The notes under the pieces are model-generated. The model was not told where the DNA came from. It worked only from the letters and a program-made list of their open reading frames with translations, and searched no databases. This document shows positions 21,109 through 25,481 of a DNA stretch of 64,000 bases, in pieces. The stretch is from IMG/VR virus record IMGVR_UViG_2623620549_000002, positions 1,871-65,870 of that record; one strand, 5' to 3'. The translations under genes were made by a program, and so were the position numbers. The stretch comes from a virus. Position 1 is the stretch's first letter, and every line of letters begins with the position of its first letter.

Positions 21109-21132
21109 GTCCGCTATCGGCCAGGAGCGGAC
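21109..21132 (+). repeat. palindromic inter-gene element E1
   Basis: GTCCGCT-ATCGGCCAGG-AGCGGAC (7-bp perfect arms). Confidence 0.8.
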
Positions 21133-21167
21133 TTTCGAACTTTCCTATTCACTACCGACCAATACAA

Positions 21168-21323
21168 ATGAAAACTAGAAAATTTCTACTTGGAGCATTC
21201 GTGCTTGCTTTTCTGGTCGCCGTTGGCCTGTGGTTACGGAACGAAGTGAGAATAGACAGTTGCTTAGACCATAGTGGCAGGTGGGATAAAGAGCGACAGA
21301 CGTGCGAAGGTGCTACAGAGTAG
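21168..21323 (+). CDS. small membrane-anchored protein (array gene 1)
   Basis: MKTRKFLLGAFVLAFLVAVGLWL TM segment, then CLDHSGRWD...C. Confidence 0.65.
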   Translation: MKTRKFLLGAFVLAFLVAVGLWLRNEVRIDSCLDHSGRWDKERQTCEGATE

Positions 21324-21337
21324 AACCATAGCTCGAA

Positions 21338-21389
21338 CGTTTGCTTCGGGGTGTAACCTGCCAACGACGGCAACCGGCCAGAAGCGGTC
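21338..21389 (+). repeat. palindromic inter-gene element E2 (doublet)
   Basis: CGTTTGCTTCGGGGTGTAACCTGCCAACGACGGCAACCGGCCAGAAGCGGTC. Confidence 0.8.
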
Positions 21390-21450
21390 TTTTTAGGTGG
21401 CTCAAGAGCTGCACGACTCGACGCCTCAGTGCAACGACCATTATTAAAAT

Positions 21451-22440
21451 ATGACTTTTCTTTGCCAAGCATGTGAACGCCGCCCGTCGTTAATAGAAGA
21501 ACGGGACGACGACCCAAACGAACCGTATCTGGTCTGCCAAGAATGTCACGGACGTTTAATAAGCCGCGGGCTTCGTCCAAGCGAGTGGTTCAACCTCGCG
21601 AAGAGACACGGATGGGCAAAGTTTCTGCTACACGACGATTTCTACGACGATAACGGGGAAGCTACTCAACCAGAAGAGGATGTCGAAGACGCTGAATTCT
21701 ACCCCGCCCCTACACTCAGCCAGGTCGAGACGGCAGCTGCCACACTTCTCGATTACTCGGTGACTCGCTGGAACCTTGACGAGGATGTCTTTGCGGCATG
21801 GCGGCGACTACCCCAAGGAAGCGTATTGTCGTGCATTGCCGAGCGCTTCGACCGCACTCTGAATCCGTCGGTCAGGGCGGTCACCTTGGAAGTGGCTGCG
21901 CTCTTTCGCGCACAAGGGAGGGTATTTGTACGGCACGCTTGGGAGTCTTACCCAGACTGCGGTTCCTTTTGGTCACTTGCAGCGGCCACAGCAGCTTGTC
22001 TCCCCGAGGATGAAGGATTTCCGCTGGTGACAATGGCGCTCGAGACGCTACCAGAGAAAATGCGGCAGAAGCAGTTCGGAGCCTTGGCGCACTTCCGCTC
22101 AACGAAAAGCCTCGGCTGGATTGAGACCCATGCAAGTGAGTCAACTAGTGAAGCATGGGGTTATCTTGCCGCTGCGTCAAAATTCAATTGGCCCAAGGGC
22201 GAAGAGTGGCTGAAGGCCGGCCGCCCCCTTAGTCTGATTGCGGTTGACGCACTTTTGGCCATCGCCAATCCTCGGACGCCGTTCTTGCGGCGCATAGGTC
22301 CCATTCTTGAAAATCAGCCTAGCGAGCAGGGCCTTCGTTACGCTGTTGAGGCTCTGATGAAAGCAGACCCGGCTCCGAGGGTGATGCAGCGCGCCAGTGC
22401 GCTACTCGAGTACGTGCCAGCCCTTATCCGCCCCTCTTGA
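21451..22440 (+). CDS. hypothetical protein, N-terminal Zn finger plus helical repeats (array gene 2)
   Basis: LCQACE...VCQECH; remainder Ala/Leu-rich and helical. Confidence 0.75.
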   Translation: MTFLCQACERRPSLIEERDDDPNEPYLVCQECHGRLISRGLRPSEWFNLAKRHGWAKFLLHDDFYDDNGEATQPEEDVEDAEFYPAPTLSQVETAAATLLDYSVTRWNLDEDVFAAWRRLPQGSVLSCIAERFDRTLNPSVRAVTLEVAALFRAQGRVFVRHAWESYPDCGSFWSLAAATAACLPEDEGFPLVTMALETLPEKMRQKQFGALAHFRSTKSLGWIETHASESTSEAWGYLAAASKFNWPKGEEWLKAGRPLSLIAVDALLAIANPRTPFLRRIGPILENQPSEQGLRYAVEALMKADPAPRVMQRASALLEYVPALIRPS

Positions 22441-22587
22441 CCTAGGTGCAAGTGCTCCCAGTGAGAGAAAGGGCATAGTGCGTGGCTGTTATTAAGTCGT
22501 GACTGTCTACATGGTTTTCGTGCCCTGACGTGGGGGCAAGACTCGAAGTGAAAGCAGCTGTTCAAACCTTAGTCGCTTGACGGCGAA

Positions 22588-22690
22588 GGTCCGCTTTGGG
22601 GCGAATGCAGCCTGCCGATGCAGCAGCAAGATTTTTACCCTGGCAACCTGCTATGCTGGGCCGAACGACCGGGTTCGGCCAATAGCGGTC
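22588..22690 (+). repeat. palindromic inter-gene elements E3a/E3b
   Basis: GGTCCGCTTTGGGGCGAATGCAGCC (22588-22612) and CGACCGGGTTCGGCCAATAGCGGTC (22666-22690). Confidence 0.7.
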
Positions 22691-22728
22691 CGTAGTCTTA
22701 CTAACATGAACAAGTCATATATATATTT

Positions 22729-23511: not shown

Positions 23512-23608
23512 TCGATCTATCGCGCAAACGTCCTGGAGCTTGCTTCGTACAGCCCATAAGCCTCTGCTCATATCGAATGTTGTACTTCCACTTTTGTCGC
23601 CTTCGACG

Positions 23609-23660
23609 GTCCGCTTCGGGGCGGAACCTGCCAATGACGGCAACCGGCCAAAAGCGGAAG
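23609..23660 (+). repeat. palindromic inter-gene element E4 (doublet)
   Basis: GGTCCGCTTCGGGGCGGAACCTGCCAATGACGGCAACCGGCCAAAAGCGGAAG; near-copy of E2. Confidence 0.8.
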
Positions 23661-23697
23661 TTCACTATGTTATTGAAGTGTAGTTTAAGGTTGCCCT

Positions 23698-23955
23698 ATG
23701 ATTAGTAAAGAAAGCGCCCCGGCAGCATGGGCCACACTGATGTACGAGCTTGAAGATGCGCAAGAACATTTGACCACGTTAATATCGGAGATGAGTAGCG
23801 AGGCTGATTACGATGAGGTCAATCTTCGCATTGGCCTCGGCCATGTGTTTGCGCACTTGAACAGGGCTTGGCATCTGCGTGACACGATGGAAGACCTCGA
23901 TCAAGAGCAGTGGCAGCGCGCCGGCCAATTTCCCAAGGACTTAGACCCGATATAG
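23698..23955 (+). CDS. small acidic hypothetical protein (array gene 4)
   Basis: 85 aa, LMYELEDAQEHL...LGHVFAHLNRAWH. Confidence 0.7.
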   Translation: MISKESAPAAWATLMYELEDAQEHLTTLISEMSSEADYDEVNLRIGLGHVFAHLNRAWHLRDTMEDLDQEQWQRAGQFPKDLDPI

Positions 23956-23967
23956 TTCGTGGACGAT

Positions 23968-23992
23968 TGGCTGGATTCGGCCAAGAGCAGAC
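23968..23992 (+). repeat. palindromic inter-gene element E5 (degenerate)
   Basis: TGGCTGGATTCGGCCAAGAGCAGAC. Confidence 0.6.
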
Positions 23993-24137
23993 GGTCGCTC
24001 TATCAACGCGAAACAGGTTACGTACGCTAACTACGATTTCGGTTGGCCCCTAAAAGAGAGGCACCAAACTAAAGTTCCTCAGTAAATTGTTGCCGATTTT
24101 CCATGTGGATGCAGGTTTGTTGGGATAATGCGGCCTC

Positions 24138-25331
24138 TTGGGTTATTTTGAAAGTGTGATAGTGGCTATAACGGACGTCTCGACCCTATTCTTTGGCATG
24201 ACACTTAACCTGTCGATCATGGCCTTGGCACTTCCCTATTTCATGGGGCGGGTGAACCGTGCAGCGCGGTATGCGCAAGCCGGTATCATATTGCAAACAT
24301 TGGGTTGGATTTTCCTGCTTTGCTCAAACACTTTTGAACGGGGCGGCTGGGCCGACCACTTGTTATCAACGATGGCAATGGGCAGCGTCTCGGGCGGCAT
24401 GGTATTCAACGCCATGGCCTTTCAATTGTGGTACGGCCGTAAGGCGAACGCTCGCGCCCCAACCGCCATAGCCGTGCTGATGACCGTTGGCTACTGCATC
24501 GGTTTTTCCGACTATCCTTTCAGGGTAGGTTGGGCGAATGGCCTGTTGGCATTACAGATTGCAACCATTATAGTGCCCCTATGCCGTGCGCCACAGGTGG
24601 CAGTCGGACGCTGGCGTTGGCTATTAATCATATGCCTTACAGTTCAGATGGTAGTACTTGCCGGCCGCGCCGTGTTGGGTGCGTTTTACACCGCTGAGTT
24701 TCCGAATTTTTTTGGGCCGTACCTGGTCAACCGAGTGTTTGCCTTGTCATCGAACTCGATGATGATGATGTCTGTGGTAGCCATCCTCCTGGCGCATCGC
24801 GACGAGGCGGCTAGGGAACTGGAACGGTTGGCTACTCTAGACGGCCTGACCGGTGCTTTGAATCGCCGCGCTTGGGTAATAAAGTCCGAGATCGACCTAG
24901 CCAGCAGTTTGCGATATAAGCGGCCACTCGGTGTATTGATGCTTGACCTCGATTATTTCAAGCAAATCAACGACAAGCATGGACATGCTGGTGGCGACAG
25001 GGCGTTGCAAGTTTTCGTCACTGGCTTACGCGCTGTGAGTCGTGTCGGAGATCTGTTCTGTCGCTACGGCGGTGAGGAATTCTGTGTGCTACTCAACAGT
25101 GCTGACTTCGCCTCGATCACAGCTTACGACGAACGCATGCGGCAGTGGCTGGAGCTGCATTCGTTCAACGAACTGGGTTTTGAACTCTCTTATAGCGGAG
25201 GTATCGCAATGCGTATGCACAATACTGACACCATTGAGAATATGCTTCAGCGTGCCGATGTCGCCCTCTACAAAGCAAAGTCGCAAGGGCGTGGCTGTAC
25301 GCTTGCCAGCTCGGAATTGCTCTGCGCATAA
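24138..25331 (+). CDS. membrane-bound diguanylate cyclase (GGDEF)
   Basis: Multiple TM helices; DGLTGALNRR, DLDYFKQINDKHGHAGGD, RxxD I-site (RVGD), GGEEF. Confidence 0.93.
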   Translation: MGYFESVIVAITDVSTLFFGMTLNLSIMALALPYFMGRVNRAARYAQAGIILQTLGWIFLLCSNTFERGGWADHLLSTMAMGSVSGGMVFNAMAFQLWYGRKANARAPTAIAVLMTVGYCIGFSDYPFRVGWANGLLALQIATIIVPLCRAPQVAVGRWRWLLIICLTVQMVVLAGRAVLGAFYTAEFPNFFGPYLVNRVFALSSNSMMMMSVVAILLAHRDEAARELERLATLDGLTGALNRRAWVIKSEIDLASSLRYKRPLGVLMLDLDYFKQINDKHGHAGGDRALQVFVTGLRAVSRVGDLFCRYGGEEFCVLLNSADFASITAYDERMRQWLELHSFNELGFELSYSGGIAMRMHNTDTIENMLQRADVALYKAKSQGRGCTLASSELLCA

Positions 25332-25429
25332 ATCGGCGGATTTTAATGCCTGTACGGTTTTCAGGAAGAGTGACGAAGCACTCTTACAAGGTTTGAAATT
25401 GGCAAAGCATTCAGTTTAATCTCTTGCCG

Positions 25430-25481
25430 TGACTGCTTTGGGGCGGAACCTGCTGCCGGCGACAACCGTCCCGGAGCGGAC
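25430..25481 (+). repeat. palindromic inter-gene element E6 (doublet)
   Basis: TGACTGCTTTGGGGCGGAACCTGCTGCCGGCGACAACCGTCCCGGAGCGGAC. Confidence 0.75.

Follow-up and report, generated by a model that had tools for sequence, protein, structure and literature searches.

Positions 21109-25481 of the window, the 64-kb stretch of DNA analysed here, probably hold five mobile gene cassettes in an orphan array which belongs to an integron-like gene-capture system distinct from integrons. This system occurs in Janthinobacterium and related Betaproteobacteria, would have its own small tyrosine recombinase and is apparently undescribed; no description of these sequences or of the system was found in the searchable literature (open-access text). 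The source contig of the window is a 66-kb IMG/VR record labelled 'provirus'. In the initial annotation five plus-strand genes had been described as separated by one family of palindromic repeats, named E1 to E6. All six elements were confirmed at their positions, as were the distances to the genes, which start 35, 38 and 38 nt past E1, E3 and E4 and stop ~14 and 12 nt ahead of E2 and E5. The proposal that this is a cassette array with the repeats as recombination sites is supported by the mobility of the cassettes and by a crossover located in a central hexamer of the site.

Across the array sites every cassette starts with the constant piece CGGCCA-NN-AGCNGNC. The sequence 5' of this piece varies and can be the canonical 36 nt, the long form, the bare GTCCGCTAT or another module. 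The 9 nt 5' of the hexamer are the inverted image of the right arm, and thus the site was defined as GNCNGCWNN-CGGCCA-NNAGCNGNC. For 164 distinct sites this consensus consists of 9-bp inverted arms and an asymmetric central hexamer, whose positions are conserved at 0.96-0.99. Conservation in the right arm was 0.95 for A +8, 0.98 for C +10, 0.99 for G +12 and 0.98 for C +14, and in the left arm 0.80 for G -9, 0.89 for C -7 and 0.85 for G -5. The same pattern holds in the 111 non-canonical sites, which have no outer arm or hairpin partner. Simple tyrosine-recombinase core sites such as dif and lox have this geometry. The core given in the initial annotation, GTCCGCT..GGCC..AGCGGAC, was right as far as it went, but it was incomplete, since the constant unit is the 24-bp site and not a hairpin; that hairpin is formed by the right arm together with an outer copy of the left one.

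The suggestion that hairpins are the sites did not hold. Covariation between the arms was absent, with 84.0% of paired cells compared to 83.4% in shuffles (45 of 500 shuffles were as high) and a score of 0.117 compared to 0.108. Furthermore, the 5' arm pairs no better with the right arm of its own cassette than with that of the adjacent one. The hairpin was rejected as functional unit; DNA folds barely beat those of shuffled sequences (z -2.3 to +0.3). As the two arms come from different cassettes, the palindrome is best read as two putative protein-binding arms and not as a selected hairpin. The canonical 51-nt form (21339-21389, 23609-23659 and 25431-25481), called a doublet in the initial annotation, can be read as two tandem sites, the first a degenerate GTCCGCTTY-GGGGCG-GAACCTGCC, followed by AAC and the true site. 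Many cassettes have this extra degenerate half. A promoter or terminator function of the elements was also considered and rejected: nothing consistent was found upstream of the cassettes in a promoter scan, and no terminator-like site was detected at any element.

The position of the crossover was deduced from sites with one neighbouring cassette in common. For 43 site pairs with only the downstream cassette in common, identity was near random (0.35-0.53) at the variable left-arm positions -1 to -4, -6 and -8. At the variable positions +6, +7, +11 and +13 of the same pairs it reached 0.79, 0.77, 0.81 and 0.98, compared to ~0.4 for random pairs. For 58 pairs sharing only the upstream cassette, identity was 0.55-0.98 up to -1; at +6 and +7 and again starting at +15 it was at random level, and at +11 and +13 a slight excess remained. 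Left arms go with the cassette before the site, right arms with the cassette after it; thus, by this comparison the exchange point lies within the central hexamer CGGCCA.

Identical or near-identical cassettes recur in different arrays and genomes, and in differing order. Cassette 4 of the window was found in two other arrays of another genome, L037:6768-7156 (minus strand) and L038:9753-10100, with 88-90% identity, and its unusual right arm GCGGAA moves together with it. At the DUF4153/motA locus seven genomes have no insert, and at least 12 have arrays of differing length and content. At the locus of the window, 3' of a MepB-like gene, the related genome G134 shows the leader, a single site GTCCGCTGG-CGGCCA-GCAGCGGGC and then the sequence which in the window follows the last site, S6. 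Compared with this empty site, whose flanks it shares, the window has its five cassettes precisely at the point where an ancestral site is split in two. Four other genomes (G161, G164, G181 and G176) have sites or arrays at this locus, with none of the cassettes of the window. The genes flanked by the elements vary in content and order between genomes and are not syntenically fixed.

In the window itself, a covariance model built from the family was scanned with filters off. E4 (76.6 bits), E2 (74.4 bits), E6 (60.0 bits) and E1 (20.0 bits) were matched, and no further significant match was obtained anywhere in the 64 kb, in agreement with the initial annotation. The 24-bp core pattern, with at most 2 mismatches, gave eight matches in the window compared to 0.6 expected, a number reached by none of 100 shuffles; all plus-strand matches lie within 21109-23992. 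E2 and E4, which had been called nearly identical, are indeed similar, but with 85% identity over 55 nt this wording goes a little too far. A single long (~103 nt) element form has E3a and E3b as its ends, E5 is a core site in which the outer 5' arm is missing, and the hexamer of E6 is degenerate (CGTCCC).

Regarding the distribution, exact pattern matches in the genome collection came almost exclusively from Janthinobacterium. Five 6-Mb Janthinobacterium genomes had 4-13 model hits each, all in co-oriented clusters with a spacing of 0.4-2 kb and not scattered over the genome. In a genus sample of 41 Janthinobacterium species, 27 genomes had 1-16 hits and 14 had none. The family was also present on two J. 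lividum megaplasmids. Among 401 genomes of the GTDB family the exact core site occurred in 217, with up to 28 copies per genome compared to 0-2 for a control pattern; taxa beyond Janthinobacterium were read from protein annotations only. The search of a phage collection gave no match, and a first loose pattern, rejected later, gave mostly chance matches and two true ones on viral contigs.

Altogether 32 arrays with 165 sites and 133 cassettes were surveyed. The median cassette is 547 nt long, and the start codon lies at a median of 37 nt downstream of the site. Of 122 cassette open reading frames (ORFs), 104 are co-oriented with the sites; clustering of the encoded proteins gave 109 clusters, 98 of them singletons. 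For 24 of 40 ORFs scanned against Pfam no family was found. The remaining ones matched GNAT, NUDIX, PNPOx, NIF, HAD_SAK_2, methyltransferase, MORN, Tdi1 immunity, GGDEF and several DUF families; immunity families accounted for two of the 40.

The candidate enzyme is a 208-aa tyrosine recombinase which was found between divergent arrays in two genomes of the GTDB family. The protein matches PF00589 with 72 bits, aligns to the catalytic domain of XerD only and has the catalytic motifs R, K, H-x-x-R, H and Y. It stays below every NCBIfam cut-off, with 21-24 bits on the integron-integrase model (cut-off 265 bits). The predicted structure (pLDDT 74) matches XerA, Cre, XerH and IntI with a Foldseek probability of 1.0. 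More than 8000 homologues exist, named merely 'tyrosine-type recombinase/integrase'. Members of the recombinase family with 67-93% identity were detected in 79 of the 401 genomes. At 20 of 21 inspected loci a site lies at most 150 nt from the gene, either 43-93 nt past the stop codon in the same orientation, or 125-145 nt upstream in divergent orientation. Often the gene is divergent from an array, as intI is in integrons. Within the 41 Janthinobacterium genomes the gene is intact in three, namely G181 (two copies), G187 and G005, and there it faces the array across a conserved 125-nt region. Arrays linked to the recombinase and orphan arrays have cassettes in common. The 66-kb contig of the window lacks this gene and gave no match to PF00589; the window array is therefore an orphan, comparable to the clusters of attC sites lacking integron-integrases (CALIN). 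The trans-acting enzyme considered in the initial annotation agrees with this finding.

A related observation concerns an identical 207-aa recombinase (P0096), for which the collection lists 131 blocks. Its contexts differ among the contigs that were read (L139-L142, from metagenomes and Methylophilaceae), one being beside gyrB-dnaN-dnaA, and short flanks are conserved. A variant site, GAGTACTAA-GGGCCA-TAAGCGGCC, lies ~120 nt upstream. The P0096-type gene together with its site may be a minimal mobile element.

From these data the following mechanism is proposed. A cassette consists of CGGCCA and the 9-bp right arm NNAGCNGNC, ~37 nt, one ORF and a variable 3' part which ends in the 9-bp left arm GNCNGCWNN, and the juxtaposition of two cassettes recreates the 24-bp site. 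Recombination between two directly repeated sites would excise cassettes as circles, which could be reinserted at any site. The conserved catalytic-domain-only 208-aa recombinase would be the enzyme, and the 125-nt region would be attI-like. The window array, a CALIN analogue, would be static unless recombinase is supplied in trans, because the contig lacks the gene.

Other explanations for the array have to be considered. The elements could be atypical attC sites in an ordinary CALIN of a canonical integron, recombined by IntI on folded single strands. Array architecture, cassette size and content are integron-like, and according to one study chromosomal attC sites can reportedly be sequence-conserved within a taxon. 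However, none of the 41 Janthinobacterium genomes scored above the 265-bit cut-off of TIGR02249. RYYYAAC or GTTRRRY boxes are missing (the arms read GNCNGC / GCNGNC), and the crossover lies in CGGCCA, 9 nt inside the 3' end, and not between the G and the TT. The arms show no covariation, and 111 of the 164 sites are without any hairpin partner. The attC explanation is largely refuted and retains hardly any probability; with neither R boxes of attC nor IntI, the earlier judgement that this is not a canonical integron stands. Very unlikely, too, are repetitive extragenic palindromes (REP), miniature inverted-repeat transposable elements or terminator-like repeats, with the shuffling as by-product of homologous recombination between copies. 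The palindromic consensus, a T run directly 3' of E2 and genes for Y1_Tnp proteins resembling REP-associated tyrosine transposases (RAYT) in 39 of the 41 genomes would fit this explanation. But unlike REP, or REPIN with their RAYT, the elements number just 0-16 per genome and are all clustered in arrays, and the Y1_Tnp genes are not flanked by them. Moreover, the common unit of 24 bp is too short for RecA-dependent recombination, the breakpoints are limited to the hexamer, and the terminator scan mentioned above was negative.

Regarding the enzyme, the initial annotation had pointed to the neighbouring large serine recombinase (523 aa, 25712-27283, minus strand). Its gene is oriented towards the array, 230 nt away from the last site, and in G009 a Tn3 resolvase abuts another array, so that this enzyme, or serine recombinases generally, might act on the sites. 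Yet a homologue (E<=1e-10) was found in none of the 41 Janthinobacterium genomes, 27 of which have elements, nor beside 14 other arrays. PF00239 is missing from many array genomes, including the complete G170 and G189, and the segment carrying the serine recombinase is absent from the locus in 12 relatives. There is next to no chance that this explanation is correct, and it was abandoned. An action of host XerC/XerD or of another unrecognised host enzyme, with the 208-aa protein as a cassette-like passenger which targets the same sites, is unlikely. All array genomes have XerC and XerD in common, and no other tyrosine recombinase, most arrays are without the 208-aa gene, and the 9-6-9 bp geometry (~11-6-11 if the flanking AAN/NTT are counted) resembles the 11-6-11 of dif. 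Xer also serves pdif modules and IMEX elements. On the other hand, the dif site of Janthinobacterium, ACTTCGCATAA-TTTATA-TTATGTCAAAT, has no similarity to the 24-bp site, which sets the arrays apart from Xer/dif modules, and the 208-aa gene shows a close and specific adjacency to the sites, with a conserved attI-like spacer. Further candidates were examined and rejected. The HUH Y1 (RAYT) enzyme is encoded in nearly all genomes whether or not they have arrays, and the sites do not flank its genes. In the complete genome G184 the remaining tyrosine recombinases turned out to be integrases of prophages or islands. Clustering of flanking ORFs for a common neighbouring gene gave only LysR regulators, methyl-accepting chemotaxis proteins and syntenic genes.

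Several points weigh against a dedicated capture system with the 208-aa protein as its recombinase. Some homologues are solitary, without arrays, between housekeeping genes and preceded by a variant site. Only three of the 41 Janthinobacterium genomes have an intact gene, compared to 27 with elements, and of the most site-rich genomes of the GTDB family only about half have it, some as pseudogenes. Because most arrays are without the gene, the link between recombinase and site rests on adjacency and not on co-distribution. Furthermore, the lack of a core-binding domain is unusual for an enzyme recognising 9-bp arms. Circles, cleavage and binding are all inferred from comparison, and the site pairs used to map the crossover lack phylogenetic independence. 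The proposed mechanism does not account for the long form or for the additional 27 nt in the canonical form, and the invariant hexamer could reflect protein contacts instead of a need for overlap homology.

In comparison with known systems, the array resembles integrons in its short, co-oriented, mostly single-ORF cassettes, which are very diverse, mostly of unknown function and variable by strain. Integrons likewise have a tyrosine recombinase gene divergent from the array across an attI-like region and many orphan arrays without the enzyme, and part of each site moves with the downstream cassette. In contrast, the enzyme here has 208 aa, consists of the catalytic domain only and reaches 21 bits compared to the integron-integrase cut-off of 265 bits. 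The site has 24-bp sequence-conserved arms with hexamer, whereas the sites of integrons are structure-defined hairpins with AAC/GTT boxes. The crossover lies in the central hexamer, with arms showing no covariation, and several arrays per genome are found at ordinary intergenic sites. Thus, of the characters of integrons the variable array of co-oriented, mobile, mostly promoterless single-gene cassettes is present; IntI, attC boxes, folded-strand recognition and the crossover position are not. Of the characters of a tyrosine-recombinase core site, inverted arms with a central region, an exchange mapped therein by comparison and a candidate cognate enzyme are found, the latter in the family and not in the window.

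Inverted arms around an asymmetric exchange region of 6-8 bp are also known from dif/XerCD, loxP/Cre and the R64 shufflon (Rci/sfx). The sfx sites are similar in having one well conserved arm, the right one, and a loosely conserved other arm. These systems serve to resolve dimers or to delete or invert fixed segments and build no arrays of captured genes, and a core-binding domain is part of their enzymes. The XerCD-dependent pdif modules of Acinetobacter plasmids are likewise discrete modules between short recombination sites in varied contexts. Sites of the pdif type resemble dif, have alternating orientations and are served by host Xer, whereas the sites described here are all direct, are unlike dif and have a dedicated candidate enzyme. 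The closest non-integron analogue is rAID-1 of Bacteroidales. It consists of co-directional small genes outside integrons, with repetitive intergenic sequences and an Xer-like tyrosine recombinase at the head (Ross et al., bioRxiv 10.1101/471110). It is delimited by a recombinase at least 44% identical to a Bacteroides XerD-like enzyme and by low-GC co-directional immunity genes, and in the part of the text available to us enriched intergenic motifs are reported, with no site or crossover mapped (bioRxiv 10.1101/471110). The array plan is alike; some cassettes here are immunity genes of type VI secretion systems (T6SS) or contact-dependent inhibition (Tdi1, CdiI, SMI1/KNR4), and some arrays follow vgrG. 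The two systems are set apart, on that description, by phylum, protein length and recombinase family, and most cassettes here are not recognisable immunity genes.

In the window, all parts of the array lie on the plus strand. The leader (21001..21108) extends from the MepB-like gene (20497-21000) to the first site, has 78% identity to the leader of G134 and is partly conserved at the same locus in relatives. It also resembles the array leaders of two other chromosomal loci, and shares the motif CCTGTTTT..TTGYYATGA with L041 and L058. Site S1 (E1, 21109..21132) has the short form GTCCGCTAT-CGGCCA-GGAGCGGAC with 0 mismatches and was aligned to the empty site of G134. Its hexamer is at 21118-21123, its left arm is chromosomal, and its right arm is part of cassette 1. 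This cassette (21118..21374, 257 nt) encodes a predicted small protein of 51 aa (21168-21323) without Pfam match. The canonical 51-nt element E2 (21339..21389) contains core site S2, GACGGCAAC-CGGCCA-GAAGCGGTC (21366-21389, 0 mismatches). Cassette 2 (21375..22675, 1301 nt) follows with a 329-aa protein (21451-22440) of no Pfam family. The long-form element E3a/E3b (22588..22690), a form also found in L041, L046, L049, L051 and L101, includes core site S3, GACCGGGTT-CGGCCA-ATAGCGGTC (22667-22690). Cassette 3 (22676..23644, 969 nt) encodes a DUF4062 protein (22729-23511; PF13271, 70.7 bits). The canonical element E4 (23609..23659) bears core site S4, GACGGCAAC-CGGCCA-AAAGCGGAA (23636-23659). Cassette 4 (23645..23977, 333 nt) has an 85-aa acidic protein (23698-23955) without Pfam match. 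It is followed by S5 (E5, 23969..23992), GGCTGGATT-CGGCCA-AGAGCAGAC; like S3 and S4, S5 matches the core pattern. Cassette 5 (23978..25466, 1489 nt) encodes a membrane GGDEF diguanylate cyclase (24138-25331; PF00990, 122 bits). The terminal canonical element E6 (25431..25481) contains core site S6, GGCGACAAC-CGTCCC-GGAGCGGAC (25458-25481), with the degenerate hexamer; its right arm is the chromosomal half of the ancestral site. The right chromosomal flank (25482..25563) has 84% identity over 81 nt to the sequence directly 3' of the single empty site of G134.

From the right flank of the array on, the segment 25564-31000 has a low GC content of ~0.50 and includes the large serine recombinase. 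In 12 related genomes the locus has no counterpart of this segment, which probably came to lie beside the array as an integrative element of its own. The window as a whole is a GC mosaic, with 0.34-0.45 at 8001-10000, 41001-42000 and 61001-64000 compared to ~0.62 elsewhere. An ORF of 1782 aa was found at 46446-51794.

Some further observations were made in other arrays. Several arrays lie downstream of VgrG-like genes (L042, L045, L051, L040:8736-10004, L101 and L102) and hold T6SS-related cassettes with Tdi1 and a Tlde1 domain, to which plasmid annotation adds CdiI and SMI1/KNR4. This hints at VgrG-linked arrays as stores of interbacterial immunity genes. An 82-nt 'mini-cassette' without ORF between two core sites, GTGACAATGTGTGACTTTTCTCGCTTGGTAATTCGTTATGCTCA, recurs across many arrays, with copies at L037:9340-9422, L038:10086-10168, L050:7781-7863, L061 (two copies) and L133:8459-8541; it may serve as a mobile module with promoter or regulatory function. 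A second recurrent module without ORF, CATCATTTCCGCTCTGCAACGATGCATTTAAGTTAAAGTGTTGCGTTGA..., ends at a CAGCCA-type site in L055, L101 (three copies), L102 and L107. At one conserved locus in four genomes (L049:4739-5584, L057, L066 and L067) an AEP-TOTE primase-like gene is located directly upstream of an array and co-oriented with it. In G009 (L110:10869-14623) a Tn3-family transposon with resolvase and DDE_Tnp_Tn3 transposase abuts the first site of the array.

Integrons are the textbook case of a dedicated platform for gene capture in bacteria and have so far been nearly without parallel. We consider it more likely than not that the system described here is a second, independently evolved platform of the integron type, widespread in Betaproteobacteria, with the core site in about half of 401 genomes and thousands of metagenomic recombinase homologues. 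It would work with a minimal catalytic-domain-only recombinase, 24-bp double-strand-type sites and circular intermediates, and would comprise many orphan arrays at ordinary intergenic sites. If this is true, cassette-based gene acquisition evolved more than once, the second platform having a much smaller recombinase and sites of an unrelated type. Integron-finding software would then miss a large mobile pool, including T6SS immunity, GNAT, NUDIX and cyclic di-GMP signalling genes. The compact recombinase and its 24-bp site pair would be a possible genetic tool. In general, the system would account for the multiple small hypervariable islets in Oxalobacteraceae genomes.

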